Notes: a model not told the origin generated them from the letters alone. A stretch of 64,000 nucleotides of DNA from an uncultured Alphaproteobacteria bacterium (GCA_963717265.1 CAVQWD010000011.1:5105-69104), one strand, 5' to 3'; positions 3,054 to 36,918 are shown, counted from the first letter of the stretch. Program-made: numbers and translations.

Positions 3054-4043
3054 ATGCATTCCAGAGCGCAGATGGCCAAGCTGTTAACCGAAGAAACAAT
3101 GGTGCCGTCGCTCGATCCTGGCATCGACATTTATGTACGCAACAAGCGACCCGCCGATATGACCGCATTCCGGCCCGAGCGTACCTTGTTGTTCGTGCAT
3201 GGCGCGACCTATCCGGCACATACGACGTTCGACATGCAACTCGATGGCCGCTCGTGGATGGATTACATCGCCTCGGACGGCTATGATGTTTATTTGCTCG
3301 ATGTCCGCGGCTACGGCAGGTCGACGCGCCCGCAAGAAATGGCCGACAAGCCGGACACCCATCCGCCGATCGTCCGCGGCGAAACCGCGCTAAAGGATAT
3401 CGCCGCCGTCGTCGATTTCATTCTCAAACGGCGCGACGTTCCCCGCCTCGCGCTCGCCGGCTGGTCGTGGGGCACAGTATTGATGGCGACCTATGCGACC
3501 CGCAATCCTGACAAGGTCGAACGGCTGGTGCTGCACGCACCGGTCTGGATCCGCAATACTCCCTCGCCGCTGCACGCCGGGTCCGGTCCGCTCGGCGCCT
3601 ACCGGACGGTGACGCGGGAGCAGGCGCGCGCCCGCTGGTACAACGGCGTGGCCGAAGACAAGCAAGCCGGCCTCATTCCGGAAGGCTTCTTCGCCGCCTG
3701 GGCAGACGCGACCTGGGCGAGCGATCCGGAAGGCGCGAAGCTTACGCCTGCGGTGATCCGCGCGCCCAATGGCGTCGTGCTGGACGGTGCCGAATACTGG
3801 TCGGCCGGCAGGCCTTATTACGAGCCGGCAAAGATCACGGTGCCGACGCTGGTGATCGTGGGCGGGTGGGACCACGACACGCCGCCCAATATGGCGCGAA
3901 CACTGTTCCCCCTCTTGGTCAATTCGCCTGGCAAAAGCTTGGTCGAACTCGACGAGGGCACGCATCACGTCATGATGGAAAAGAACCGGCTCGAACTGTT
4001 TGACGCCGTTCAGCGCTTCTTGAACGCACGGGCTGCCGACTGA
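3054..4043 (+). CDS. Alpha/beta hydrolase
   Basis: LLFVHGATY oxyanion region, nucleophile elbow LAGWSWG, C-terminal EGTHHVMMEK. Exact start is uncertain. Confidence 0.75.
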   Translation: MHSRAQMAKLLTEETMVPSLDPGIDIYVRNKRPADMTAFRPERTLLFVHGATYPAHTTFDMQLDGRSWMDYIASDGYDVYLLDVRGYGRSTRPQEMADKPDTHPPIVRGETALKDIAAVVDFILKRRDVPRLALAGWSWGTVLMATYATRNPDKVERLVLHAPVWIRNTPSPLHAGSGPLGAYRTVTREQARARWYNGVAEDKQAGLIPEGFFAAWADATWASDPEGAKLTPAVIRAPNGVVLDGAEYWSAGRPYYEPAKITVPTLVIVGGWDHDTPPNMARTLFPLLVNSPGKSLVELDEGTHHVMMEKNRLELFDAVQRFLNARAAD

Positions 4044-6669: not shown

Positions 6670-7704
6670 TCACCGGGCGGCGGTTTTCGCCTTCATGGCG
6701 TCCCACCACGGGCACACGCCGGTCATGACCTCGTAATTGCCTTCCAGCACCTGTACCGGCCGGCGATAGCCTTCCGCCGCGTTCTTGAGCCGCAGCGCGC
6801 GGGCTTTCTCATTGTCTTGCTTCGACAGCCAGACGCGGTCATGGCCCCACAGGCTCGGGCCTTCCTTGCGTTCCGAAGCCTGCCAGGTGTTGACATCGAT
6901 CGAGCGCGCGCCCCAGCCGTACTCGACCATGAAGCCGGACGGCGTGAAGCTATAGAACGAGGTGATGAAATCGGATGTGTGGCGGCCGAGCGTGACGCCG
7001 ACGCGGCCTTCTTCGCCCACGGCAAGATCATAGGCTTGGCCGACATCGTCGAAACTGAACAGCTCCATCATGATGTGATGGACCGCGTTCTTCCCGGTCT
7101 GGATGAAAGCGAGGCTGTGATGGCGGGGATTGATATGGAGGAAGCGGGCGACAAACGGATGATCGTAATAGTCGGTCAGCCGGAAACCCAGCGTGTCGCG
7201 ATAAAATGCCATCAAGCGGTCGATCGTGTCTCGCGTTTCGACATTGAGCACGACATGGCCCAAGCCCAGCGGCCCGGTACGGAAGCCCGAGATCGAACGG
7301 CCGGGCTTGAACGGCTCGGCCGTGGTCTCGGCGCCATGGAAGATTTCCAGGCGGTTGCCGAGCGGATCGGCAAGCACGATCAAATCTTTGACGTGGCGCT
7401 CGTCGGCGAGCGCGCGGGACCCGCGCGCGACCTTGACCGCGGCCTGCTCAAGATGAGCCGCGAGCGCGTCGAGCGCCGCGGCGTCGGCGACCTCCCAGCC
7501 GAAATAGCCGATGCCTTCGCCGCCATCGGCGTCGACGATGATGCGCTGCTTGCGATCGTCCATGCGGAAGGCAAGGCTCAAGCGCGATTTGTCGATGCGC
7601 TGCAGGCCAAGCAGGCCCGAACCGTAGCCGGCCCAATCGCCCAAATCCTTGGCGCGAACGCCGACGTAACCCAAAGCCTGCGGAGCAAATCCCTTCGCCA
7701 TCAT
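6670..7704 (-). CDS. VOC-family type I extradiol ring-cleavage dioxygenase (BphC-like)
   Basis: Two VOC modules: LGYVGVRAKDLGDW... and GLGHVVLNVETRD...RHHSLAFIQ...HHIMMEL. Start taken at MMAKGF. Confidence 0.8.
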   Translation of the reverse strand: MMAKGFAPQALGYVGVRAKDLGDWAGYGSGLLGLQRIDKSRLSLAFRMDDRKQRIIVDADGGEGIGYFGWEVADAAALDALAAHLEQAAVKVARGSRALADERHVKDLIVLADPLGNRLEIFHGAETTAEPFKPGRSISGFRTGPLGLGHVVLNVETRDTIDRLMAFYRDTLGFRLTDYYDHPFVARFLHINPRHHSLAFIQTGKNAVHHIMMELFSFDDVGQAYDLAVGEEGRVGVTLGRHTSDFITSFYSFTPSGFMVEYGWGARSIDVNTWQASERKEGPSLWGHDRVWLSKQDNEKARALRLKNAAEGYRRPVQVLEGNYEVMTGVCPWWDAMKAKTAAR

Positions 7705-7794
7705 GACGAACCTCGTGCAGCCGGTCGGTGTGGCCGTTGCCATCCTTTTACACCGATGGCATGACGGTTGAAACGCTTAATGGGACGATCATTC

Positions 7795-8923
7795 ATGCAG
7801 CCGCGCAGCAAACCGCCTTTCCGTGCCGATCATGTCGGCAGCCTGATCCGGCCCGATGCGCTCATTGCGGCGCGCGAAACGGCCGAGAAAGGCGAGCTTG
7901 AACCGGCAGCATTGCTGCGCATCCAGCAAGACTCGATCGGAGAAGTCGTGCGGCTGCAGCAGCAGACCGGGCTCAAGCTCGCGACCGACGGCGAGTTCAA
8001 CCGCCATTCCTGGCAGCGCGACTTTCTGCTCAAGATCGGCAATGTCGAGCCGATGGCGTCGAAGCTCGCCGTGCGCTTTCACTCTGCTGCCGGAACCCGC
8101 GATCACTCGCCGCCGTCGCTGCAGGTCGTCGGCAAGCTGTCGCGCCCCGATGGCATATTCGTCGACGACTTCAAGTTCCTCAAATCGATCGTCGCCGCCT
8201 CGGTCACGCCGAAAATCACCATTCCGTCGCCCACGATCGTGCATTTCCGCGGCGGCCGCGAGGCCATCGACGCGCGCGCCTATCCGCAGATGGACGCATT
8301 CTACCAGGACTTGGCAAATGTCTATCGCGCGGAAATCCGGGATCTCGCCGCTGCCGGCTGCCGCTATCTGCAGATCGACGAGGTCAACCTCGCCTATCTG
8401 TGCGACCCCGAGCTGTGCCGTCAGGTCGCCAATATCGGCGAAGACCCGGACTCGCTGCCGAAGATCTATGCACGGCTGCTCAACGACGCGATCAAAGACA
8501 AACCGGCCGACATGACGGTGTGCATGCATCTGTGCCGCGGCAATTTTGCCGGCGCCTGGATCGCCGAAGGCGGCTATGAGCCGATCGCGGAGTCTCTTGT
8601 TCAACGAGATCGGCGTCGACGGCTACTTTCTCGAATACGATTCGCCGCGCGCTGGCGGTTTTGCTCCGTTGCGGCATCTGCCCAGGGGCAAGATCGCCGT
8701 GCTTGGCCTCGTCACCACCAAAAGTCCAAAAATGGAAACCAAGGACGAGCTGAAGCGGCGCATCGAGGAAGCGAGCCGCTATGCGCCGCTCGAGCAACTC
8801 GCGCTGTCGCCGCAATGCGGCTTCTCCTCGGGCATTGGCGGCAACACCATGACGGTCGAGGACGAGATCAAGAAGCTCGAGCTGGTGGTCGAGACGGCGC
8901 GCGAAGTATGGGGCGAAGCGTAG
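7795..8923 (+). pseudogene. Cobalamin-independent methionine synthase (MetE C-terminal domain)-like protein, +1 frameshift
   Basis: FRADHVGSLIRP...CMHLCRGNFAG...GGYEPIAESL continues in the +1 frame as FNEIGVDGYFLEYDSPRAGGF...LSPQCGFSS. There is one extra base within tctcttgttc (8593-8602). Confidence 0.8.
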
Positions 8924-8941
8924 CTCGACGAGTCCGGCCGA

Positions 8942-9922
8942 TCACCGCTCGGCGACGAAGCGATTTTCCATTCGGCCCAGATGCTCGATCTCGGTCTCCA
9001 CGACATCGCCCGGCTTGAGGAAGGTGTTGGTTCCCTGCCCGACGCCGCCGCAGGTGCCGCAGCTGAAAATGTCGCCGCTGTGCAGGGAAAGAATGTTCGA
9101 GCCGTATTCGATCTGCTCCTCGGGCGTGAAGATGAACTGCGAGGTGTTGCCGTTCTGTTTGATCTCGCCGTTGACGGTCAAGCGGATGAACAAATTCTTG
9201 TGATCGGGCACGAAGGCGCGCGGCAGCAGGAACGGCCCCATCGGCGCGAATCGGTCGTGGTTCTTGCCGTTGAGCCAATCCGAGCGCAGGCCCGGCCGGT
9301 CGGCGCGGATCTGCAGGTCGCGGGCGGAAACGTCGTTGGTGGTCATAAAACCCGCCACGTGTTCGAGCGCGCGTTCGGCCTTGATGCGTTTGCCGGGGCG
9401 GCTGATGGCGAGAGCGATCTCCGCCTCCCAGTCGATCTTGTTCAGACCTCGCGGGATTTCGATATCGTCATAGGCGCCGGCAAGGCAGCTCGGCGCTTTC
9501 AGGAACAAATAGGGCTGCGTCGTCGACTTCTCGCCGGTGAACTTCGGCCCGCCGACGGGAGTCATTCCGGCGCGCAGCATCTCGTCGACATGCTCCTGAA
9601 AATTCTGCGCCGCATAGAACATCTTGCCGGGGTGGGCTAACGGCGGCAGCGGGCGCAGCGCGGCGAGCTTGGCGGCGTCCGCCGGCAGCCCCTCCTTTTC
9701 GAAATAGGCCGCCATCTCCTGCAACACGGCAAAATTGGCGTCCCACTCCGGCAACAGGGCCTGAATGCTTTCGGTCGAACCAAGCCTGCCGCCTCGCCCC
9801 GAACGCAGATAGGCGGCCTGTGCCGCCGCGAGGTCGATCGCGTCCTCGCCGATCACGAGCGCAGCGAACGGGCTGCGCTGCGGTCTCGCCAGCGTGGCGA
9901 GCTTGAAAACTTTGCCGTTCAT
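8942..9922 (-). CDS. Fumarylacetoacetate hydrolase (FAH) family protein
   Basis: C-terminal FAH fold: DWEAEIALAI...TTNDVSARDLQ...GDIFSCGTCGGVG. Confidence 0.85.
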   Translation of the reverse strand: MNGKVFKLATLARPQRSPFAALVIGEDAIDLAAAQAAYLRSGRGGRLGSTESIQALLPEWDANFAVLQEMAAYFEKEGLPADAAKLAALRPLPPLAHPGKMFYAAQNFQEHVDEMLRAGMTPVGGPKFTGEKSTTQPYLFLKAPSCLAGAYDDIEIPRGLNKIDWEAEIALAISRPGKRIKAERALEHVAGFMTTNDVSARDLQIRADRPGLRSDWLNGKNHDRFAPMGPFLLPRAFVPDHKNLFIRLTVNGEIKQNGNTSQFIFTPEEQIEYGSNILSLHSGDIFSCGTCGGVGQGTNTFLKPGDVVETEIEHLGRMENRFVAER

Positions 9923-10093: not shown

Positions 10094-11140
10094 TCACGCA
10101 GCGCCTTCGCGCCAGAACGCGAGCACGACCGCCACGATTGCAGGTCCGAGGAACAAGCCGATCACGCCGAAACTGTCGATGCCGCCGAAAATGCCGAGCA
10201 ACACCCACAGGAACGGCAGCCGCGTCGAGCTGCCGATCAGGATCGGCCGCACGAAGTGATCGGCAACGAAAGTCACCAGAGTACCAGTCACAAGCAGCGC
10301 GATGGCGCCTGCCGTGTGCGATACCGCGAACAGATAAAGAGCGCAGGCGGCGAAGATGAGCGGCGCGCCGAACGGGACGGTCGCCAGCACGGCGGTCAGC
10401 AGACCGAGCAGCACGGCGTGGGAATACAGCCCAGTCGCGGCATAGGCGATGCCGAGCAATACGCCCTCGGCAAGGCCGACCAGCACCAGCCCGTTAACGG
10501 TGCCGCGCACGGCGGCGACCGCATCCTTGCCTAGCTCTCCGCCCGACGGTCCGAACAATCGGTCGGCAATGACGTGCGCCTGTGCCACGACGCTCTGACC
10601 GTCGCGATAAAGAAAGAACAGCGTGAGCAGCGCGAATAGCAGAATGGTCAGGCGGCTTGCCACTTCGACCCCGAGGGTGCGGGTGAAACCGAGAACCTCG
10701 CCCGTATTGACGTGGCCGACCAGCGGACCAAACAGCTCGGCAGTTCCTTTGCCGGCGAGCGAATCCTGCCACCATGCCGCCAGCTCATCGCCGACAAACG
10801 GCACATGGCGCAAAAGCTGCGGTGGGGCGCCGAAACCGCTTTGCAGCAGTTCGCTCAAATGCGGCGCAATCGCTCGGCTTTCACGCGCCGCCTCGATGCC
10901 GATCCTGATCAACGGCAGCACGACCACAACCGCCAAGAGCAGTGTGAGCAAGGCCGCGATTGCGGTCTTTCCAAGCCCGGACTGAGCGAGCCATTGCCGC
11001 AGCGGCCAAGTCGCGATCGCGAGCACACAGGCCCACGCCAATGCGGGCAGGAAGCGCCACAGCATCCACACGCTCAAGAGCACGATCGCGACGATCAGGG
11101 CGGTGCGCGCCGCCCGCCGCACGTCCCAGTCCGGGTTCAC
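10094..11140 (-). CDS. AI-2E (PerM/YhhT) family transporter
   Basis: 348 aa polytopic membrane protein with the family-typical C-terminal segment FVADHFVRPILIGSSTRLPFLWVLLGIFGG. Confidence 0.85.
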   Translation of the reverse strand: MNPDWDVRRAARTALIVAIVLLSVWMLWRFLPALAWACVLAIATWPLRQWLAQSGLGKTAIAALLTLLLAVVVVLPLIRIGIEAARESRAIAPHLSELLQSGFGAPPQLLRHVPFVGDELAAWWQDSLAGKGTAELFGPLVGHVNTGEVLGFTRTLGVEVASRLTILLFALLTLFFLYRDGQSVVAQAHVIADRLFGPSGGELGKDAVAAVRGTVNGLVLVGLAEGVLLGIAYAATGLYSHAVLLGLLTAVLATVPFGAPLIFAACALYLFAVSHTAGAIALLVTGTLVTFVADHFVRPILIGSSTRLPFLWVLLGIFGGIDSFGVIGLFLGPAIVAVVLAFWREGAA

Positions 11141-11193: not shown

Positions 11194-12183
11194 TCAGCCG
11201 CCCAGCTTCACCGGCACGAATTGCGTCGCAAACAGGACGTTGTCGGCGGGGACTTGCTTGAGCAGCCCCATCTGAATGAACGACTTCTTGAGCACTTCGA
11301 TGGCCTGCGGGTCGAACGTACCGTCGGTCGAGAAGCCGGGCATCTGTTCGTCATAGGCGCGCGCGGCAATCTCGGGGGTGACGTTGATGACTTTGGCGGA
11401 AATCTCCACCGATTGCTGCTTGTGCGTTTTCATGTAGGCGATGGTGCCAAACCAGCCCTGCAGGAAGCCGCGCACCAGTTCGGGATGTTTCTCGATCAGC
11501 TCGTCGCGCGCGAACAGCACGTGGGTGATGAAATGATCGACGAACGGCGTCGCCGTGGTGATGATGCGCCATTCCTTGGCTTGTTCGAGCTTGTAGCCGG
11601 TATCGACCGCGCCGATATAGCCGTCGATCTGATGGGTCTTGATCGCCGCGCGCGCAGGCGGCATGCCGCCGATCGGCACCACGTCGATGCCGTGGTCGCC
11701 CCAGCCTTCCTCTTCGTTGATGCGGTGGCCGATCCAGGCGGTCAGCGAGCCGACGGTGGTGCAGCCAATTTTCTTGCCCTTCAGGTCGGCGACGGTCTTG
11801 ATCGGCGAATCGTAGCCGACCATCACCGCCATATTGCGCGGCGCGCCGTACATGGCGGCAACCGCCTTGGCGGGCACGCCCTTGGCCGCGAATGCCATGC
11901 CGGGGCCGGAGCCGATGCCGATGTCGATGCTGTTGGAGGTCAGTAGCTGCTGCAGCTTGGCGTCGCCGGCCGAGGAAGATTCGACGATATCGAGGCCATG
12001 CTTGGCGAAAATGCCCTCCTGGATGCCGACATCGAGCGGCGTGAACGTCCAGGCGAACGGCACCACCTTGGCAACGCGAAGCTTTTCGGCGGCGTGCGCG
12101 AGCCGTGCCGAAAGCGGCAGCATGGCGCTGCAGACAAGGCTTGTAAGACCCGCCACGAGGCTTCTGCGGGATAATGTGTGCAT
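11194..12183 (-). CDS. Periplasmic substrate-binding protein, NMT1/THI5 (NitT/TauT-type) family
   Basis: Signal MHTLSRRSLVAGLTSLVCSAMLPLSARLAHA, then an SBP fold (LRVAKVV...IDIGIGSGPG...). No permease or ATPase gene lies next to it. Confidence 0.75.
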   Translation of the reverse strand: MHTLSRRSLVAGLTSLVCSAMLPLSARLAHAAEKLRVAKVVPFAWTFTPLDVGIQEGIFAKHGLDIVESSSAGDAKLQQLLTSNSIDIGIGSGPGMAFAAKGVPAKAVAAMYGAPRNMAVMVGYDSPIKTVADLKGKKIGCTTVGSLTAWIGHRINEEEGWGDHGIDVVPIGGMPPARAAIKTHQIDGYIGAVDTGYKLEQAKEWRIITTATPFVDHFITHVLFARDELIEKHPELVRGFLQGWFGTIAYMKTHKQQSVEISAKVINVTPEIAARAYDEQMPGFSTDGTFDPQAIEVLKKSFIQMGLLKQVPADNVLFATQFVPVKLGG

Positions 12184-12357: not shown

Positions 12358-13833
12358 TCAAGCCCGGTTCGGCTTGCCGACGAAGCCGTAGCCGTGGCCT
12401 GCCGCCTGCGCGGCCCAGCCGCCAGCGACGCGCCCGCTGAACACCGACGGCCCGAGCATGGTGCCTTCGAGACCGGCGCGGCCGTTGATGTGACCGCCGG
12501 CCATGCCGGCGAGTTCGCCCGCTGCAAATAGGCCGGTAATCGGCTCAAAATGCCCATCGAGCACGCGGCACTGCAGGTCGGTCTTGACGCCGCCAAAATT
12601 CTTGCGCGCCAGCGGGAAAATCTGAACGGCATAGTAGGGCGGCGTATCGAACGGTTTTGACGATTTCAGCGGCTTGCCGAACTCCGGCTCCTTGTCGAGC
12701 CGTTGTTCGCACGCCTTGTTGTAGCGTTCGACAGTAGCGAGGAACGTCGCCTCGTCGACCTTGATGCGCTTGGCCAGTTCGGCCAGCGTGTCCGCTTTGT
12801 GGATGAAGGGCGAGTTGTTGAGCAGCTCCACGACCTTTTCCCGCGCCACCTTGTCGCCGTCCCGGTAGTACGGATCGGCGACCTCCATTTTCGCAGTCAT
12901 GGGCGTGTCCATGATGGCCCAGGCATGACGCGGTGACTGCGCCATCAGGGCCGGCGTCGCCGAGTTGCCGCCGGAACGCGCCTCGTTGTGAAACCGGCGG
13001 CCCTGCTGATTGACCCAGATGTAACCGGGCACCACACGGAACACGAGGCCGCGGCGCCGCTTGGGATCGCGATAATCAGGCGTCGCATAGACGTAGAACC
13101 AGATATGGTCCATGTGCGTAAGATAGCCGCCGGCATCGCGGATGAACTTGTGTCCGGTTCCGGTCGAGTTGCGGCCCGAGCCTTCGAGGATCCTGTCGTT
13201 GCGCAGCGCCGGATTGTATTCAAGCACCATATCGAGGTTCGAGTTGAAGCCGCCGGTCGCCGCCACGACGGCTTTGCTCCGCACCTCGATCGGCTCGCCG
13301 GTCTTGGTATTGCGACCCGTCAGGCCGGCGACGCGGCCGCCCTCGAGTTTCAGCCCGGCAATCTCGACCTCCGGCACGATCTCGCCGCCCTTGCGGCGGA
13401 AGCTCTCGATCAGGTTGGTCATCAGGCCGAAACCGTTGTGCTCGGTGCGAGTCCAACGCATGACGGAATTGCCCTCCTGCTCTTTCATGTCGGCCCAGCG
13501 CGCGCCGAGGTTTTCCGCCCAGTGGTAGAGATCGTGCAGGTTGTGCTCGATGTAGTAGCGGGCCCACACCTCGTCGGCCGACGGACCGCCCCACGCGATC
13601 CAATCCTTGAACGCCAGGTCCGGCGTGTCCCTGATGCCGCAGTCCTGTTGCAGCTCCGAGCCTACGACCAGGCAGCCGCCCCCGGAGATGATGGCCGCGC
13701 CGCCGGCCTGCGAATCCTTCTCGAACGCGACGACGCGTGCGCCAGCATCGCGGGCCTCAATGCCGGCTGCCACCCCGGCGCCGCCCGCGCCGACAATCGC
13801 AACGTCAGTCTGGTACTGCTTGACGCCTGCCAT
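12358..13833 (-). CDS. FAD-dependent oxidoreductase (fumarate reductase/KstD-like flavoprotein family)
   Basis: DVAIVGAGGAGVAAGIEARDAGARVVAFEK dinucleotide fold and C-terminal GLFAAGELAGMAGGHINGRAGLEG. Start taken at MAGVKQYQTD. Confidence 0.85.
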   Translation of the reverse strand: MAGVKQYQTDVAIVGAGGAGVAAGIEARDAGARVVAFEKDSQAGGAAIISGGGCLVVGSELQQDCGIRDTPDLAFKDWIAWGGPSADEVWARYYIEHNLHDLYHWAENLGARWADMKEQEGNSVMRWTRTEHNGFGLMTNLIESFRRKGGEIVPEVEIAGLKLEGGRVAGLTGRNTKTGEPIEVRSKAVVAATGGFNSNLDMVLEYNPALRNDRILEGSGRNSTGTGHKFIRDAGGYLTHMDHIWFYVYATPDYRDPKRRRGLVFRVVPGYIWVNQQGRRFHNEARSGGNSATPALMAQSPRHAWAIMDTPMTAKMEVADPYYRDGDKVAREKVVELLNNSPFIHKADTLAELAKRIKVDEATFLATVERYNKACEQRLDKEPEFGKPLKSSKPFDTPPYYAVQIFPLARKNFGGVKTDLQCRVLDGHFEPITGLFAAGELAGMAGGHINGRAGLEGTMLGPSVFSGRVAGGWAAQAAGHGYGFVGKPNRA

Positions 13834-14118
13834 CGGCGACACTCCCCGTTTGCCAAAAGCCCTCACTTGCCCCGGCGTGCTCGGCAAACGTGCTTATAGG
13901 GGCCGGAATCGCGCTTGAACACAGGTATCGAGCGGCCGCGCCCCGCCGCATGGCGGAACTGCATTTCGAGCTGCGCGCGAGCGACCCGGAAAGCCGAAGC
14001 AGTTTCATTCGCACTGGAATTGTTGCAAAATCAGCCATGGTGGCCGGCCGCGTCCTCGGAGCGAAGCGCTCTGCCGCGGCAGTCCATGCGCTCGCGCGCG
14101 AAAACCACGGAGGAAACC

Positions 14119-17100
14119 ATGGCGCTCGCCCAGCTCAAATTCCCGGTCATCCTGTTCGGTGCGGCACAGCTTCTCAAAAGCGCAGCACGCCGCAACGCCG
14201 ATTTCAAGGAGCGGCTGCGCGAGCATAATTTCGTCGCGCAGATCATGGCGCGTGACGAAGAGATCGGCCGCTGGATCGAATTCCGCGGCGGCAAGGTCGC
14301 CACGCGCGCCGGACTGCATGCCAAGCCCGACATCAAGCTGATGTTCAAGAACGCCACGATCGGCGCATCGCTGCTATCGCCGCCGATCAATTGGCTCGAT
14401 CAGATCAACGCGCAAAAGGATTTCGTCCTCACCGTCGACGGCCCGGAATACCTGACCAATTGGTTCGCGCAGACCTTGATGTTGGCGCAGTCGGCCGGCC
14501 TCAAATACGGCAGCAAAATGCCGGACGGCACCATGCGCTATTGCAATATGACGAACGGCGGGCCGGTCTTCGTTGATGTCAAGGACGGCAAGATCGTGCG
14601 CCTGACGCCGATCGACCTGACCGAAGATGACGGCGCCTCGTGGACCATCGAGGCCAAGGGCGAAAAACTCACCCCGCCGCGCAAGACCACGCTCGCCCCG
14701 CATGGCCAGAACGCCAAGTCGATCGTCTATTCGCCCGATCGCCTGCTCTATCCGATGAAGCGGGTCGATTTCGATCCGAACGGCGAGCGCAATCCGCAAA
14801 ATCGCGGCAAATCCGGCTATGTCCGCATCTCCTGGGACGAGGCGATCAAAATCGTCACCAACGAGATCAAGCGGCAGAAACGCGAATACGGTCCGGGCGC
14901 CATCACCTTCTCGCACGGCTCGCACCATACCTGGGGCAATGTCGGCTATTACCTCTCGGCGTTGTTCCGCTTCGCCAATGCGGTCGGCATGACGCGCATC
15001 CATCATAACCCCGATTCCTGGGAGGGCTGGTACTGGGGCGCCGTACACCATTGGGGCTATACGCTGCGCGTCGGCCAGTCGGAGACCTACGGCACAGTCG
15101 AGGATTGCCTGCAGAACTGCGACATGATCGTGCACTGGGCCGCCGACCCGGAATCGACCTCAGGCTCGTACGGTGCGCAGGAAGGCACAACGCGGCGGCA
15201 GTGGCTGAAAAACCCGAAACTCGGCATCAAGATCGTTCACGTCGATCCGTACTACAACGCCTCGGCGCAATTCCTGCCGGGCAAATGGTTTGCACCGAAA
15301 CCGACCACTTCGGTCGCGATGGCAATGGCCATCGCTTACGTCTGGATCAAGGAAGACCTCTACGACAAGGAATACGTGAAGACCCACACGATAGGCTTCG
15401 ACAAATGGAAGGCTTATCTGCTCGGCGAGGAAGACGGCGTTGCCAAGACGCCAGAATGGCAGGAAAAGGAAACCGGCGTTCCGGCAAAGGACGTGCGCGC
15501 ACTCGCCCGCGAGTGGGGCAGAAAGCGCGTCTATCTGGCGCCCGGCGGCTGGGGCAACGGCCACGGCGGCGCCTGCCGCAACCAGACCGGCATCCAATGG
15601 GCGCGCGTCATGGTCTGCCTCGTCGCCATGCAGGGACTGGGCAAGCCCGGCATCAACATGGGCAACCTGCAATGGGGCACGCCGCTCGACTTCAATTTCT
15701 ATTTCCCCGGCTACGCCGACGGCGGCATGTCCGGCGACCTCGAAAACACGGCGATGCCGGTCGAGCTTTATCAGCGCATGCCGCAGCTGCCGAGCATGAA
15801 CTCGAACGGCCAGCGCATCCCGCGGATTTTCGTTCCCGAGGCGATCGTCGACGGCAAAGCCGAAGGCTATCCCTGGGTCGGTAAATCGATCGAGCACCAG
15901 TTCGCCCGCTTCGCCTATCCGGCGCCCGGCCATTCGCCGGTACACATGCTGTACAAATACGGCGGCTCGATTCTCTCGACCATGAACAACACCAACCGCT
16001 GGGTGCGGATGTATCAGTCGGAAAATCTCGAATTCGTCGTCAACCAGTCGATCTGGAACGAGGGCGAAGCGAAATTCGCCGATATCCTGCTGCCGGCCTG
16101 CACCAATTTCGAGCGCACCGACATTTCGGAATGGGCAGGGCTCGGCGGCTACGGCCATCACGGCCAGCAGCAGCTCAATCACCGCGTCATCGTGTTCCAG
16201 GCGCCGGCGATCAAGCCGCTCGGCGAGTCGAAATCCGATTTCTGGATCTTCAACGAGCTGTGCAAGCCGCTCGGCCTTGCCAATTACTTCTCCGAAGGCG
16301 TCAACGAGATCGACTGGGTCAAGCGGGTGTTCCTCGCTTCCGACCTGCCGAAATACATTTCGTGGAAGAAATTCGTGCGGCGTGGCTATTTCGTGGTGCC
16401 GGCCGAAAAGGAGAAGCTGCGCGCGCCGGTGTCGTTCCGCTGGTTCTTCGAGAACCGCAAGAAAGACGTGCCGGAAGCGCAGCCGCTGCCGTCGGATTAC
16501 ACCGAGGAATATCTGCGCGGTCTGCAGACGCAATCCGGCAAGCTCGAATTCGAGTGCAATTCGCTTCTGCGCTTCAACGATCCCGAACGGCCGCCGATCG
16601 TCAAATACGAGCCGTCATGGGAAGGCGCGCATTCGGGCGAATTGTTCGAGCGCTACCCGCTGCAATTGCTCACCCCGCATTGCAAGTATTCGTTCCACAC
16701 CCAGGGCGACGGCAAGGACTCGTTCCTGCTCAACATCGAGGACCATCGCGTCAAAGTCGACGGCTATTACTACTGGATCGTGCGGCTCAATACCGAGGAC
16801 GCCAAGGAACGCAGCATCGGCAAGCACGATCTGGTCAAGGTCTTCAACGACCGCGGCGCGGTGATTTGCGCCGCCTTGCCAACGCAGCGGCTGCCGCGCG
16901 GCGTCGCTCACGGCTACGAGTCTTCGGCCATCTACGACCCGATGGGCGAGCCGGGCAAATCGGTCGACCGCGGCGGCTGCCTCAACCTGCTTACGCCCGA
17001 GCGCACCCAGACCAAATCGACCCATTCGCTCGCCGGCTCCAATTCGCTCGTTCAGATCGAGCCGTGGGACGGCCGTATCGAGCATATGTCGGCGGCGTTC

Positions 17101-17169
17101 GCCGCGATGGAGAAGGACAAGGAGATCAAGCGTACGTTGAAGGAGGCCCACTTGGTGCCGGCGAAATAA
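14119..17169 (+). CDS. Molybdopterin (bis-MGD) oxidoreductase, pyrogallol hydroxytransferase large-subunit (AthL)-like, with ~140-aa N-terminal extension
   Basis: ATG 14119 lies 5 nt after GGAGG. From residue ~140 it is collinear with my recollection of Pelobacter AthL ([81 protein letters not shown]). No Tat signal and no N-terminal Cys cluster. Confidence 0.85.
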
Positions 17170-17223
17170 AACACCTCTCCCCGCGTGCGGGGAGGGGGAG
17201 TTGAATGTGGGAGTCAAATAACA

Positions 17224-18060
17224 ATGCAAAAATGGAACCTCATCATCGACGTGGCCGAGTGCACCAATTGCAATCTGTGCACGCTCGCCGCCATGGACGA
17301 ATATGTCGGCAACAACTGGCCCGGCTATTCGGCGCCGATGCCGCGCCACGGCCACAAGTGGATCGACATCCTACAGAAGGAACGCGGCCAGATGCCGATG
17401 ATCGACATCGCCTACGTTCCGACCATGTGCAACCATTGCGACGACCCGCCCTGCATGAAGGCCGACAAGACTGGCGCGATCAAAAAACGCGATGACGGCA
17501 TCGTACTGATCGATCCGGTCAAGGCGAAGGGCCGCAAGGAGCTGGTCGACGCTTGCCCCTACGGCCACATCTGGTGGAACGAAGAGTTTCAGGTGCCTCA
17601 AGCCTGGACCTTCGATGCCCATCTGATCGATCAGGGCTGGCAGCAGACCCGCGGCCAGCAATCGTGCCCGACCGGAGCGATGCGCTCGATCAAGGTCGAG
17701 GACGAGGAAATGGCGCGCCTTGCAAGCGAGCAGGAACTCGAAGTGATGAAGCCGGAGCTTCGCAGCCGGCCGCGCGTGTACTATCGCAATCTGTGGCGCT
17801 ACACGAAGTGCTTCATCGGCGGCACGGTCTCGGAGGAAAAGAACGGCGTCGTTGAATGTGTCGAGGGAGCGAGCGTGCACTTGAGCAAGGACGGCGCCTC
17901 GGTAGCGGTGACGGCGACCGACAATTACGGCGATTTCAAATTCGACAAGCTCGACGAAGACTCGGGGAGCTACAGCCTGCAGATATTCACGGGCGGCCGG
18001 TCGAAAGTGATGGAAACAAGCCTCGGCGCCAGCATCAATCTCGGCGAAATCAGACTGTAG
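17224..18060 (+). CDS. Fe-S subunit, pyrogallol hydroxytransferase small-subunit (BthL)-like
   Basis: MQKWNLIIDVAECTNCNLC, MCNHCDDPPC, DGIVLIDPVKAKGRKELVDACPYG, KPELRSRPRVYYRNLWRY. C-terminal beta-sandwich-like tail (NYGDFKFDKLD...INLGEIRL) as in BthL. Confidence 0.85.
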   Translation: MQKWNLIIDVAECTNCNLCTLAAMDEYVGNNWPGYSAPMPRHGHKWIDILQKERGQMPMIDIAYVPTMCNHCDDPPCMKADKTGAIKKRDDGIVLIDPVKAKGRKELVDACPYGHIWWNEEFQVPQAWTFDAHLIDQGWQQTRGQQSCPTGAMRSIKVEDEEMARLASEQELEVMKPELRSRPRVYYRNLWRYTKCFIGGTVSEEKNGVVECVEGASVHLSKDGASVAVTATDNYGDFKFDKLDEDSGSYSLQIFTGGRSKVMETSLGASINLGEIRL

Positions 18061-18145
18061 AGGCTTATCGAGCGAACCGGTCGCGTGCGCGACGAAGCTT
18101 TCGCGCTTGGCGGCCCGCGACATCGGTTTCAACGGGAGGGCGACC

Positions 18146-19123
18146 ATGAGACGATGGTTTGGCGCGCTGATCGCGCTGCAATGCCTGGGCGCCGCGGCGG
18201 CGGCGCAGGCTCCGGCCTATCCGCAGCGGCCGATCACCTTCATCGTGACGGCCGCGGCTGGCGGGGTGACTGACGTGGTGGCGCGCGCGCTCGGGCAGGA
18301 GCTTAACAAGGCGTGGGGTCAACCGGTCGTCGTCGTCAATCGCGGCGGCGCCGGCCACATCCTCGGCATGGAAGCCGTCGCCAGGGCCGCACCCGACGGC
18401 TACACGCTGATGGTCTCGGAATCCGGCTCCGCCGTCATCGATCCGCTGATCTATCCGCCGGGCAAACTGCCGTTCGACATCGAGAAGGATTTCGTGCCCA
18501 TCAGCGGCCTGGTGCGGATCAATCAGGCGATTCTGGCCAATCGCGCGCTGCCGGTCTCCAATGCGGCGGAACTCATTGCTATGGCGAAGCGAGAACCGGG
18601 CAAGCTCACCTACGGCACCGCCGGCATCGGCACCGCGCCGCACATGAACATCGCGCTGTTCGAGAGCATGGCCGGCGTCAAATTCGTGCCCGTGCATTAT
18701 CGCGGCGCAGTCCCTGCGCTCAACGATGTGCGCGCCGGCACCATCAATCTGATGTCGGTCGGGGTGAGCCTGGCGCTGCCGGCGTATCGCGCCGGCGAGA
18801 TCAAGATACTCGGCATCGGCAGTGAGAAACGTCTGCCGCAAGTGCCCGACATTCCGACCATCGCCGAAAGCGGCCTGCCCGGTTATCAGGCGGTCGCCTG
18901 GTTCGCGCTGTTTGGACCCGCCGCGATGCCGCACGACATCGTCGTCAAGCTGAACGCTCAAGTGCAGCGGATATTCAACGACGAGGCGTTCCGCAAGCGC
19001 TTCCTCGATCCGCAGCTCTACCAATCCATCGCCGGGCCGCAGCAGGACTTCATTGCCTACATCAAGGCCGATCGGGCGAAGTGGTCGAAGGTGATCGGCG
19101 AAGCTCATATCAAGCTCGACTGA
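18146..19123 (+). CDS. Bug-family (TctC-like) tripartite tricarboxylate transporter substrate-binding protein
   Basis: Signal MRRWFGALIALQCLGAAAAAQA, then YPQRPITFIVTAAAGGVTDVVAR...NRGGAGHILG...PDGYTLMV. Confidence 0.85.
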   Translation: MRRWFGALIALQCLGAAAAAQAPAYPQRPITFIVTAAAGGVTDVVARALGQELNKAWGQPVVVVNRGGAGHILGMEAVARAAPDGYTLMVSESGSAVIDPLIYPPGKLPFDIEKDFVPISGLVRINQAILANRALPVSNAAELIAMAKREPGKLTYGTAGIGTAPHMNIALFESMAGVKFVPVHYRGAVPALNDVRAGTINLMSVGVSLALPAYRAGEIKILGIGSEKRLPQVPDIPTIAESGLPGYQAVAWFALFGPAAMPHDIVVKLNAQVQRIFNDEAFRKRFLDPQLYQSIAGPQQDFIAYIKADRAKWSKVIGEAHIKLD

Positions 19124-25006: not shown

Positions 25007-25294
25007 TTGCTGCGCATTTTTGTTTCCCGTTTGGTGGACCGTGCACGCTTCCTTTACGGGCGGGCCGGACCACTCTCCGGAACGCGCTTTACCCTCGTTC
25101 CGGCACCAATCGGAATTAGGAATAATGTCCACACGGCTGGAGTCGAGCCGCGCGCTGGCCGGTGAAGCCCGCCGCATATCGCCATAGAATTTCACCCGCT
25201 TCGATGCTACCCAGCCCAGGGGGCCGTGACCGGCACAGCCGCGGCGGCGCCGGCCGCATTGACCGACGAGAACAATTGCATTGGGACGAAACAC

Positions 25295-26122
25295 ATGGGC
25301 CAGATCGTTGCCGGGTTCGGCATGCCGCACAATCCGGGTTCGCCCGCCGTGGTGCTTCGCGACGGGGCGCAATGCGAAACGGCGCGCTATTACGCCGAGA
25401 TAGCGAAGCAGATCGCGGCCGTCGCGCCGGATGTGCTGATCATCTTCACCGACGACCACTTCAACACCTTCTTTCTCGATAATTTTCCGACCTTTGCGAT
25501 TGGCGTCGCTGAAACGACAGCCGGCCCCAATGATCAGACGCCGATGCCGCGCTATAAGGTTGCGGTGCCTGGCGCGCTGGCGGCTCATATCCGCAACAGC
25601 TCGATCGAGCACGGCTTCGATCTTGCGCTGGTGCAGGATTTCGAGGTCGATCACGCCGTCATGGTGCCGCTGCACTTTCTGACGCCGGACATGAAAATTC
25701 CCGTGCTGCCGATCTTCATCAACTGCCTGGCACCGCCCCTGCCTACAGCAAGCCGCTGCTTCGCGCTCGGGGAGGCGGTGCGCGCTGCGGTCAACGACTG
25801 GCCCGAGCCGCTGCGCGTTGTGGCGATCGGCAGTGGCAGCTTTTCGCTGGAGATCGGCGGCCCGAAAATTCCAGTCGGCCCGCGCGCTGCCGGCACGCCC
25901 GACCCAGGGTGGTCCCAGCACGTGCAGGATCTCCTGCATGAAATGCGCGTCGACGACCTGATCACCGAGGCTACTCCGGCGCGAATGTTCCGCGCCGGCA
26001 ATATTGGCGGCGAACTGCTCAACTGGATCGCGCTGCTTGGCGTCATCGGCGCGCGCAAGCCCGTCAACATCCTGCCGCAGAACGATCATGGCCAAGCCTT
26101 TGTGGCATGGCGGTGGAACTGA
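25295..26122 (+). CDS. Class III extradiol dioxygenase catalytic subunit (LigB/gallate dioxygenase-like)
   Basis: MGQIVAGFGMPHNP...IIFTDDHFNTFFLDNFPTFAIG...DHAVMVPLHFL. Start at MGQIV. Confidence 0.8.
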   Translation: MGQIVAGFGMPHNPGSPAVVLRDGAQCETARYYAEIAKQIAAVAPDVLIIFTDDHFNTFFLDNFPTFAIGVAETTAGPNDQTPMPRYKVAVPGALAAHIRNSSIEHGFDLALVQDFEVDHAVMVPLHFLTPDMKIPVLPIFINCLAPPLPTASRCFALGEAVRAAVNDWPEPLRVVAIGSGSFSLEIGGPKIPVGPRAAGTPDPGWSQHVQDLLHEMRVDDLITEATPARMFRAGNIGGELLNWIALLGVIGARKPVNILPQNDHGQAFVAWRWN

Positions 26123-26139
26123 GCGGAGCGCGTAAAACC

Positions 26140-26415
26140 ATGAGCGTTTATGCCGTCAACAAGCTTTGCCGCGACGCACTTCACGACCTCGCCTTTCGCG
26201 AGGCGGTCAAGCGAGATCCGGCCGCCGCCGTTGCTTCGCGCGATCTCACAGATGAAGAACGCACAGCGCTTCTCGCCGGCGACGTCGCCAAGCTCTACGA
26301 GCACGGCTGCCATCCGTTCCTGCTCGCGTATCTCACGCGCTGGAACCTGTTCGGCCTTACGCCCTTGATCTACACCCAGCGCATCCAGAAGGCGCGCGAC
26401 GAACGCGTTCAATGA
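26140..26415 (+). CDS. LigA-like small subunit of class III extradiol dioxygenase
   Basis: 91 aa, MSVYAVNKLCRDALHDLAFREAVKRDPAAAV...LTDEERTALLAGDVAKLYEHGCHPFLL, 18 nt after the LigB-like gene. Confidence 0.65.
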   Translation: MSVYAVNKLCRDALHDLAFREAVKRDPAAAVASRDLTDEERTALLAGDVAKLYEHGCHPFLLAYLTRWNLFGLTPLIYTQRIQKARDERVQ

Positions 26416-36099: not shown

Positions 36100-36918
36100 T
36101 TACGCCGTCGGTCGGTGCTCGCTCTGCGGCTGATTGCGCTGCCGAGCCTTGCGCCCGAAAAACAATGCCTGGCTCACGACAGCCGAGACGACGGCGAGCT
36201 GGAACGGCTTGGCGATGAGAAAGGCGGGCTCGGGCCGCTGCCCGGTCAGGAAGCGTTCCGGATAGGCGGTAATGAAAATCACCGGCACCTCGAGCGAGCC
36301 GAGCAGCTCGTTCACCGCGTCGAGCCCGGAACTGCCGTCGGCCAGCTGGATATCGGCGAGGATAAGCCCGGGCCGCTTCTGCCGCGCCAGCGCAACGGCT
36401 TCGCCGTGGGTGCGCGCGATGCCGATCACGGTATGGCCCAGGCTTTCGACCAGAGTCTCGATATCCATGGCGATGAATATCTCGTCCTCGATGATGAGGA
36501 CATCGGTCGCGATTTCGGCGGCGAGCTCCCGGCCGGATTCCTCGACCAGGCGGCGGAGGCTAGCCAGATCGCAGCCGAGCACTTCCGCCGCGTCCTCTTC
36601 GGAAAAACCCTCCAGCGCAACCAGGAGGAAGGCCTGTCGAGGACGCGGGGTGATCTGCGTCAGGTGCTGCTCCGGAGGTAGCAGCGTAACGCCCGCCTCC
36701 GGCAAGCTGTTGACCGGCACCGAATTCCAAATCTTGGTGAAAGCGCGGTAAAGCGCGACCCGGGAGCTCGACCCGCTCTCCAGAATTTGCGGGCTGGCGA
36801 TCAGCGACTCCAAGGCGGCCGCGACATAGGCGTCGCCGGACGCTTGGCTGCCGGACAGAGCCCGCGCGTAGCGGCGCAAATAGGGTAATTGCTTGCGTAC
36901 GGTTTGCGAGGTTGACAC
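36100..36918 (-). CDS. phyR: Anti-anti-sigma response regulator PhyR
   Basis: N-terminal sigma-like domain (LPYLRRYARALSG...) fused to a C-terminal receiver (VLIIEDEIFIAMDIE...ILADIQLADGSSG...FITAYPE). GTG start after GGAAGG. Confidence 0.9.
   Translation of the reverse strand: MSTSQTVRKQLPYLRRYARALSGSQASGDAYVAAALESLIASPQILESGSSSRVALYRAFTKIWNSVPVNSLPEAGVTLLPPEQHLTQITPRPRQAFLLVALEGFSEEDAAEVLGCDLASLRRLVEESGRELAAEIATDVLIIEDEIFIAMDIETLVESLGHTVIGIARTHGEAVALARQKRPGLILADIQLADGSSGLDAVNELLGSLEVPVIFITAYPERFLTGQRPEPAFLIAKPFQLAVVSAVVSQALFFGRKARQRNQPQSEHRPTA

Follow-up and report, generated by a model that had tools for sequence, protein, structure and literature searches.

The closest described relative of the enzyme treated here is the pyrogallol-phloroglucinol transhydroxylase AthL/BthL of Pelobacter acidigallici (EC 1.97.1.2, PDB 4V4C), a two-subunit enzyme that converts pyrogallol to phloroglucinol with 1,2,3,5-tetrahydroxybenzene as co-substrate. 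It is regarded as an oddity, since the reaction brings no net redox change and yet the enzyme carries a three-cluster electron relay of puzzling purpose. Our analysis concerns a gene pair, termed alpha and beta, on a stretch of 64,000 nucleotides from an uncultured Alphaproteobacteria bacterium (GCA_963717265.1 CAVQWD010000011.1:5105-69104; the whole stretch is referred to as the window), for which an original prediction had been made from the sequence alone. Judged by sequence similarity, alpha and beta form a cytoplasmic molybdenum enzyme of the bis-molybdopterin guanine dinucleotide (bis-MGD) type that belongs to the pyrogallol-phloroglucinol transhydroxylase family, and within this family to a sister clade of the AthL-type enzymes, which we call the long form. 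The long form is a widespread undescribed variant of a known enzyme; as a gene pair, the locus is ordinary.

AthL/BthL had been named in the original prediction as the only characterized member of its subfamily, which is no longer correct. RhL/PgtL is a recognized subfamily with two characterized members, the second being the resorcinol hydroxylase RhL (PMC10100899). Going by its description in the literature, RhL/RhS of Aromatoleum (Azoarcus) anaerobium belongs to this same Ser-coordinated cytoplasmic subfamily acting on phenols, but unlike the transhydroxylase it performs a net oxidation that requires an electron acceptor. The next-closest solved structures are those of the S- and N-oxide reductases TorA/DorA/BisC/MtsZ, which have the Ser-ligated bis-MGD fold in common with alpha. 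However, their E-values are weaker by about 220 orders of magnitude, a beta subunit is missing, and the majority are periplasmic with a twin-arginine (Tat) leader.

Both subunits encoded in the window are collinear with AthL and BthL (52% and 45% identity). Shared between them are the AhtL-like first domain, the lack of the FS0 motif and of a Tat leader, the Ser ligand of molybdenum, the beta-sandwich third domain of beta and the residues His144, Asp174, Tyr404 and Tyr560, as well as, in close relatives but not in the window, a linkage to homologues of phloroglucinol-pathway genes. The pair of the window differs from AthL/BthL by an extra 125-residue domain with the predicted fold of sterol carrier protein 2 (SCP2) and a C-terminal tail of about 30 residues on alpha, by the replacements Arg153Tyr, His154Leu and Trp354His, by a beta subunit without the four Cys of the middle cluster (with Trp and Asp instead), and by its host, which is an aerobe. 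A literature search brought up no account of the SCP2 fusion, of the absent cluster or of the replaced pocket residues.

Homology of alpha and beta to AthL and BthL

The gene pair and the parts of alpha are as follows.

14119-17169, plus strand: alpha gene, long-form AthL homologue, 1016 amino acids
14119-14493, plus strand: N-terminal SCP2-fold domain of alpha (residues 1-125), predicted fold, without AthL equivalent
14494-14532, plus strand: linker of alpha (residues 126-138), G131 and G137 conserved
14533-17073, plus strand: catalytic body of alpha (residues 139-985, corresponding to AthL 5-869), 52% identity over 841 aligned positions
17074-17169, plus strand: C-terminal tail of alpha (residues 986-1016) and stop codon, predicted helix at residues 992-1008
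17224-18060, plus strand: beta gene, BthL homologue, 278 amino acids; longest open reading frame (ORF) from 17185

The best match of alpha among solved structures was the large subunit of pyrogallol hydroxytransferase (4v4c_A, E 1.8e-288, 963 bits), with residues 139-985 aligning to residues 5-869 of 875 at 52% identity; a TorA-like S-oxide reductase followed with E 1.1e-66 and 229 bits. Furthermore, the Pfam domain PF21423 AhtL-like_1st was detected in alpha with 86 bits at a cut-off of 27. Residues 1-277 of beta align to residues 1-273 of 274 of BthL (4v4c_B, E 1.2e-71, 45% identity), so that the C-terminal beta-sandwich domain of BthL, its third, is also present in beta; a CarboxypepD_reg match in beta (E 7.8e-6) stayed under the Pfam cut-off. 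The pair is therefore homologous to AthL/BthL at full length and not merely by a generic MGD match, as the original prediction had proposed. Neither of the outcomes that it had named as speaking against it was found, namely placement of alpha in another dimethyl sulfoxide (DMSO) reductase clade or an alignment limited to generic MGD-binding segments. Its statement that alpha, like AthL, has neither a Tat leader nor an FS0 motif was likewise borne out, with no match to Molybdop_Fe4S4 (PF04879) and the first Cys at position 142 at the earliest, in agreement with a cytoplasmic enzyme.

Collinearity over the whole length holds for AthL, which is covered end to end, but not for alpha, in which residues 1-138 and 986-1016 have no AthL counterpart. 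Alpha thus consists, according to structure prediction, of an SCP2-fold domain, a 13-residue linker, the AthL-like body and a short C-terminal tail. A model of the whole alpha computed with AlphaFold2 (AF2) from a shallow alignment was poor (predicted local distance difference test, pLDDT, 44.6), its tail was of low confidence, and its Foldseek matches merely restate the sequence homology. The ATG of alpha at 14119 is preceded by GGAGGA. Both ORFs are uninterrupted, and compared with the relative L001 they show 92% amino-acid and 87% nucleotide identity, a pattern expected under purifying selection.

Distribution and phylogeny of the long form

More than 5000 homologues of alpha are present in the databases. 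For comparison we used a long-form sample of 80 genome loci that are 60-93% identical to alpha and a short-form sample of 80 AthL-type loci from metagenomes that are 57-86% identical to AthL. The long-form loci sampled belong to Xanthobacteraceae, other Hyphomicrobiales, Rhodospirillales, SAR116, Magnetospirillum and some Gamma- and Betaproteobacteria. The catalytic bodies were compared in a rough neighbor-joining tree that has a 34%-identical paralogue as its root and no bootstrap or other support values; in it, all long forms fall into one clade, which is sister to all sampled short forms. The SCP2 domain as predicted, the loss of the ligands of one Fe-S cluster (FS2) and the pocket substitutions are common to all or nearly all sampled long-form members.

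The original prediction described such homologues as uncharacterized in aerobes, which now holds only in part. In a 2026 preprint, pgthAB homologues are annotated throughout SAR116, and the phloroglucinol cluster has been reported from rhizobia (Bradyrhizobium, Mesorhizobium) and marine proteobacteria (PMC10470551). Genome surveys count such genes as pgthAB for polyphenol turnover in soils, peat and ocean. Given the pocket substitutions and the variable neighborhoods described below, there is as yet no justification for calling long-form genes pgthAB. The clade, whose sampled members are mostly aerobic soil and marine Alphaproteobacteria, offers an experimental handle on the role of the relay in catalysis and raises the question of how oxygen-sensitive polyphenol chemistry runs in oxic cells.

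Predicted SCP2-fold domain at the N-terminus of alpha

An AF2 model of alpha residues 1-140, based on an alignment of 63 sequences, reached a pLDDT of 87.4 and a predicted template modeling (TM) score of 0.77. When this model was compared to the PDB with Foldseek, the top 37 matches were all of SCP2 type (E down to 4.5e-6, probability 0.98-1.00, TM up to 0.62/0.70), among them the C-terminal domains of the alkylsulfatases Pisa1 and SdsA1, UbiJ-SCP2 (TM 0.60/0.70), AF1534 and sterol carrier protein 2. The predicted model contains a five-stranded sheet with flanking helices in the order of SCP2. Known SCP2 domains (UbiJ-SCP2, 6H6O; SdsA1/Pisa1, 2CFU and 2YHE; sterol carrier protein 2) thus share the predicted fold and the order of elements with the N-terminal domain, but sequence identity is only 9-20% and there is no Pfam SCP2 match; the domain of alpha also differs from them by several conserved polar residues (R51, K100, D46, Q41). 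In the alkylsulfatases SdsA1/Pisa1 it is likewise an accessory domain fused to an enzyme, where it is C-terminal instead of N-terminal as in long-form alpha.

Sequence searches with this domain gave no link to another family. Pfam returned nothing at E up to 10, the SCP2 models included, a profile of 36 sequences compared to PDB sequences yielded noise only (E 0.36 or worse), and phmmer against 1.8 billion representatives produced 358 matches without sign of such a link, which, to judge by their length and alignment range, are either fragments or complete proteins of this very family. The domain is conserved in 76 long-form alphas, with G50, R51, A98, K100, F102, G108 and W115 among the invariant positions. 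The 120 best of the alpha homologues are 1005-1054 amino acids long and cover 96-100% of the query, and where the gene start lies on the contig nearly all long-form loci match from residues 1-8, the rest from residues 20-29. The N-terminal extension is therefore not an artefact of start-codon choice. The domain is absent from the 80 short-form loci: a search gave no similarity to it within 6 kb, and in 67 of 68 the in-frame sequence upstream is too short to hold it. The short-form locus L149 offers 163 upstream in-frame residues, and they show no similarity to the domain.

Matches of 135-140 amino acids had raised the idea of a stand-alone SCP2 gene, which was rejected, as the fragment ends are spread as in random truncation. 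On one metagenomic scaffold (L163:1756-3408) the codon that follows R140, exactly where the SCP2 domain meets the AthL-like body, has given way to an in-frame stop. The gene call there gives a 139-amino-acid stand-alone SCP2-like protein and a separate alpha, of which the reading frame is otherwise continuous. It may be that this is a pseudogene or an error, or that the gene is naturally split.

Active site of alpha

Active-site positions are given in AthL numbering. We take Ser175 to be the Mo ligand and His144, Asp174 and Tyr404 to be a proton-handling set, roles reportedly assigned by Messerschmidt et al. in 2004; at each of these residue numbers the PDB sequence has the type of residue that was anticipated. 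Alpha keeps these residues as S300 (Ser175), H269 (His144), D299 (Asp174) and Y532 (Tyr404), together with Y678 (Tyr560). Ser175, His144, Tyr404, Tyr560, Tyr152 and Trp176 were found in 76 of 76 long-form alphas and Asp174 in 75 of 76. Near the active site, however, Arg153 is replaced by Y278, His154 by L279 and Trp354 by H482. These replacements run through the long form, with Tyr for Arg153 in 75/76 sequences, Leu or Ile for His154, and mostly His for Trp354, whereas the short-form alphas largely keep Arg153 (68/71), His154 (62/71) and Trp354 (63/71).

Two JGI contigs (Ga0209269; loci L087 and L088) encode an AthL orthologue (82% identity) and in addition a divergent alpha paralogue (34% identity to AthL) with Ala152, Cys153 and Gly354 and without Tyr560, with homologues of a short-chain dehydrogenase/reductase (SDR) and a cyclase nearby. 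The paralogue may be a transhydroxylase or hydroxylase of another specificity.

Fe-S clusters of the beta subunit

In its ferredoxin-type part, beta retains eight of the twelve cluster Cys of BthL (C13, C16, C19, C148 and C69, C72, C77, C111). The other four are lost, with A23, W128, D131 and G144 at the positions of BthL Cys23, 126, 129 and 145. In NarGHI, FS1 is bound by Cys1-3 of group I and Cys4 of group IV, FS2 by Cys1-3 of group IV and Cys4 of group I, and FS3 by Cys1-3 of group II and Cys4 of group III. If this pattern is applied, the four lost Cys are presumably the ligands of FS2, the middle one of the three clusters of BthL, and the Cys kept in beta presumably those of FS1 and FS3. 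Beta thus keeps ligands for only two of the three [4Fe-4S] clusters of BthL.

The same is seen across the clade. In 52 long-form betas, BthL Cys13, 19, 149, 68, 71, 76 and 109 occur without exception and Cys16 in 50, while Cys126 is replaced by Trp in 51/52 and Cys129 by Asp in 52/52, Cys145 mostly by Gly and Cys23 mostly by Ala, Val or Thr. In contrast, all 65 short-form betas keep Cys126, 129, 145 and 149, and position 23 is Cys in 47/65 and Asp in 18/65. The 18 sequences with Asp (within loci L089-L154) retain the other three ligands of the middle cluster, which suggests an Asp-ligated [4Fe-4S] or a [3Fe-4S] cluster.

The four-cluster subunits NarH, DmsB and PsrB have the ferredoxin-type Cys groups in common with beta. 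Compared with these, FS4 is already absent in BthL, and in the long-form beta FS2 is absent too. The remaining two clusters are not neighbors in a NarH-type relay, and we infer that without FS2 the distance between FS1 and FS3 should be too large for efficient transfer, which would leave the distal cluster isolated. A clade-wide loss of the FS2 ligands fits a reaction that has no need of an electron relay.

Genomic neighborhood of alpha and beta

The genes and sites around the pair are the following.

10094-11140, minus strand: AI-2E family membrane transporter, beside the NMT1 gene
11194-12183, minus strand: NMT1/SsuA-type binding protein with a Tat-like signal; longest ORF to 12327
12358-13836, minus strand: FAD_binding_2 flavoprotein of the soluble fumarate-reductase / flavocytochrome c flavin-domain type (FAD gene)
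13837-14118: divergent spacer between the FAD gene and alpha, 282 bp
13888-13995, no strand: synteny breakpoint, from DNA comparison with the closest relatives
14002-14034, plus strand: conserved upstream element GTTTCATTCGCACTGGAATTGTTGCAAAATCAG, 33 nt, 85-117 nt 5' of the alpha ATG
18146-19123, plus strand: TctC/Bug-type periplasmic binding protein (PF03401, E 4.7e-61)

The NMT1, FAD, alpha, beta and TctC genes lie where the original prediction had placed them, and the FAD gene and alpha are indeed divergent across a shared intergenic region, which measures 282 bp and not 285 bp. That no membrane transporter component lies nearby is not strictly right, as an AI-2E gene adjoins the NMT1 gene.

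The FAD oxidoreductase and the two binding proteins had also been put forward as a meaningful context for alpha and beta, which our comparison did not support. By tblastn, not one of the 80 long-form loci, including those with 89-93% identity, has an FAD or NMT1 orthologue at a distance of up to 10 kb from alpha, and beta is the only gene found with alpha in every locus whose contig extends far enough. Similarity to the closest relatives at the DNA level sets in only at 13986-13996, about 125-135 nt upstream of the alpha ATG, and further upstream it resumes only at 4.2-8.2 kb, in inverted orientation. The flanks of the relatives end inside this inverted block, which limits the test of a simple inversion as the origin of the arrangement in the window. 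Of the two binding proteins, TctC is the only flanking gene of the window that recurs beside the pair in close relatives, where it lies downstream of beta with 62-80% identity (L002, L003, L005, L006, L008, L009, L011, L012, L014 and L037).

The NMT1 gene is associated with the FAD and AI-2E genes and not with alpha and beta. On the metagenomic contig of the closest FAD homologue (L161), the only other contig with this arrangement, the genes FAD, NMT1 and AI-2E are found on the same side of alpha at a distance of 2.7 kb. Between alpha and FAD lie a 414-amino-acid ORF without a recorded Pfam match, a 72-amino-acid ORF and a small glyoxalase gene (L161:8086-9545, minus strand), and the window is without these 2.7 kb and three genes. 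Another FAD homologue, 82% identical, occurs in an unrelated context without alpha/beta or NMT1. Because of the spacing in L161 and this unrelated context, the adjacency of FAD and alpha is lineage-specific and was made by rearrangement. We judge the FAD flavoprotein to be a chance neighbor outside the alpha/beta module.

The element GTTTCATTCGCACTGGAATTGTTGCAAAATCAG, with a TTGCAA core, is kept in nine relatives whatever lies further upstream and is a candidate promoter or operator of the alpha/beta operon. It gave no match to the sigma-70 consensus, and a reading as sigma-54 promoter was rejected, as the distance from GG to GC is 9 nt and not 12.

At the place where the window holds genes for an FAA hydrolase, AI-2E, NMT1 and FAD, most of the closest relatives carry instead a block of a 3-hydroxyacyl-CoA-dehydrogenase (3HCDH)-type gene, an SDR, a cyclase, an amidohydrolase_2 and a 2-hydroxyacid dehydrogenase, followed by alpha, beta and often TctC. 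SDR and cyclase are both present upstream in 13 of the 17 loci with an alpha identity of at least 89%. The best PDB match of the SDR is 5g4k (170 bits, compared to 141 for the next entry), which we take to be the phloroglucinol reductase of Clostridium. The cyclase is a PF04199 protein, and it is our own mapping that PF04199 presumably corresponds to the family called 'cyclase' in the literature. Dihydrophloroglucinol cyclohydrolase (DPGC) belongs to the 'cyclase' family (PMC10470551). Gene cluster c10 of the relatives is the 3HCDH-type enzyme, like the triacetate-forming dehydrogenase TfD, and the amidohydrolase_2, a hydroxybenzoate decarboxylase homologue, matches gamma-resorcylate decarboxylase (E 2.6e-67). 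Some short-form loci from anoxic metagenomes are also flanked by homologues of the SDR (32-40% identity), the cyclase (35-37%) and the 3HCDH-type enzyme (35-54%).

The membrane protein DoxX is encoded 3' of beta in 19 long-form loci. In a subclade comprising L028, L036, L038, L040, L041, L042 and neighbors, alpha and beta are separated by an insertion of two small cupin genes and DoxX follows beta, and the surroundings include subunits of a xanthine-dehydrogenase-type Mo hydroxylase, LysR, an enoyl-CoA hydratase and an SDR.

Potential function

From the sequence comparisons, the enzyme is probably, albeit with considerable reservation, a transhydroxylase that acts on pyrogallol or a close analogue and feeds a reductive phloroglucinol route. 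It would move a hydroxyl group between polyphenols and thereby turn pyrogallol (or a near analogue, given R153Y, H154L and W354H) into phloroglucinol without net electron flow, as in Pelobacter; because no net electrons flow, an interrupted Fe-S chain would be tolerated. The SCP2 domain might bind a small hydrophobic or redox-labile ligand, or anchor the enzyme. The product would then enter the reductive phloroglucinol route, which is independent of oxygen, and the TctC protein might serve the uptake of a trihydroxybenzoate. In the window a rearrangement would have swapped the upstream pathway block for the FAD, NMT1, AI-2E and FAA-hydrolase genes, which would be bystanders. Several observations weigh against this assignment. 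Homologues of the SDR, the cyclase, the 3HCDH-type enzyme, the decarboxylase and the 2-hydroxyacid dehydrogenase were not found within the 64-kb window. An SCP2 domain is unexpected for small water-soluble phenols, and as Arg153, His154 and Trp354 have been exchanged in the whole long form, it may use another substrate or co-substrate. In addition, other long-form subclades have other neighbors (extradiol dioxygenases and an FAA hydrolase in SAR116, elsewhere DoxX, cupins and LysR), so that one function for the whole clade is not assured.

The substituted pocket would also suit an acceptor-dependent hydroxylase of the RhLS type, which we regard as unlikely but worth serious attention. Such an enzyme would react a phenol with water at the Mo center and pass two electrons out via the proximal cluster, possibly to a quinone held by the SCP2 domain or DoxX, and its product would feed oxygen-dependent ring cleavage. 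RhL is a member of the same RhL/PgtL family (PMC10100899), and UbiJ-SCP2, one of the best fold matches of the N-terminal domain, is proposed to bind ubiquinone intermediates (PMC9499169). The position of DoxX after beta in the 19 loci mentioned above and the extradiol and LigAB-type dioxygenases, present in the window and beside SAR116 copies, point in the same direction. However, the Fe-S relay is broken and not lengthened, the pair has no conserved companion among cytochromes, NAD(P)-binding or quinone-reducing subunits, and the closest relatives hold genes of the reductive phloroglucinol pathway and not of the hydroxyquinol pathway. A partnership of alpha and beta with the FAD oxidoreductase, either in redox or as next step, with the two binding proteins delivering substrate, we consider improbable. 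The divergent arrangement across the 282-bp spacer would agree with it, as would the order FAD-NMT1-AI2E on the same side of alpha in L161, but there three genes part FAD from alpha, the 82%-identical homologue does without alpha/beta and NMT1, none of the 80 related loci has FAD or NMT1, and the element conserved upstream of alpha stops short of the breakpoint.

It is most improbable of all that the pair is an S-/N-oxide reductase of the trimethylamine-N-oxide (TMAO), DMSO or biotin sulfoxide reductase type, as the names of JGI homologues ('trimethylamine-N-oxide reductase', 'S/N-oxide reductase-like') would have it. The NCBIfam models bisC_fam and TorA do match alpha, but with 314 bits at a cut-off of 1018 and 283 at a cut-off of 909, the AthL match exceeds that of the best S-oxide reductase by 963 to 229 bits, and the enzyme has an Fe-S beta subunit of its own, which includes the third domain specific to BthL. 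For the transhydroxylase itself we tentatively add a further idea, to which we give rather little credence, namely that the long form may be a re-engineered enzyme in which the predicted SCP2 domain carries a ligand that is taken up from solution in the case of Pelobacter. One candidate for this ligand is the oxygen-labile co-substrate 1,2,3,5-tetrahydroxybenzene, which would be protected there and allow the reaction to proceed in air; other candidates are a lipophilic quinone and an alkyl- or prenyl-phenol. If the quinone reading were true, electrons would leave directly from the proximal cluster, which would explain the loss of the middle cluster, and aerobes would possess an oxygen-independent phenol hydroxylase coupled to the quinone pool.

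Host and further genes in the window

The host is a soil bacterium, and the aerobic alphaproteobacterial setting assumed in the original prediction agrees with our results. A PhyR-type anti-anti-sigma response regulator, a type which to our knowledge is restricted to Alphaproteobacteria, is encoded at 36100-36918 (minus strand), the best-matching metagenome-assembled genomes are Xanthobacteraceae, and oxygen-dependent ring-cleavage dioxygenases are encoded nearby. Genes for oxygen-dependent aromatic catabolism lie at 25226-26415 (plus), 6670-7743 (minus), 8942-9922 (minus) and 3054-4043 (plus); the aromatic catabolism set of the window comprises a LigB/LigA-type ring-opening dioxygenase, a BphC-like extradiol dioxygenase, an FAA-family hydrolase and an alpha/beta hydrolase. 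Genes for MmgE/PrpD and a luciferase-like monooxygenase are also present in the window.

A MetE-like gene (PF01717, 7795-8923, plus strand) on the border of the block whose orientation is reversed compared with the relatives is apparently frameshifted near 8550. Its N-terminal two thirds lie in the frame of ORF 7768-9018 and the last approximately 72 profile positions in that of ORF 8546-8923, which is either a pseudogene or a sequencing error. From about 42000 to 64000 the G+C content of the window falls from about 63% to about 58%, and a carbamoyltransferase and family-2 glycosyltransferases are encoded there, which suggests a surface-polysaccharide cluster that was possibly acquired.

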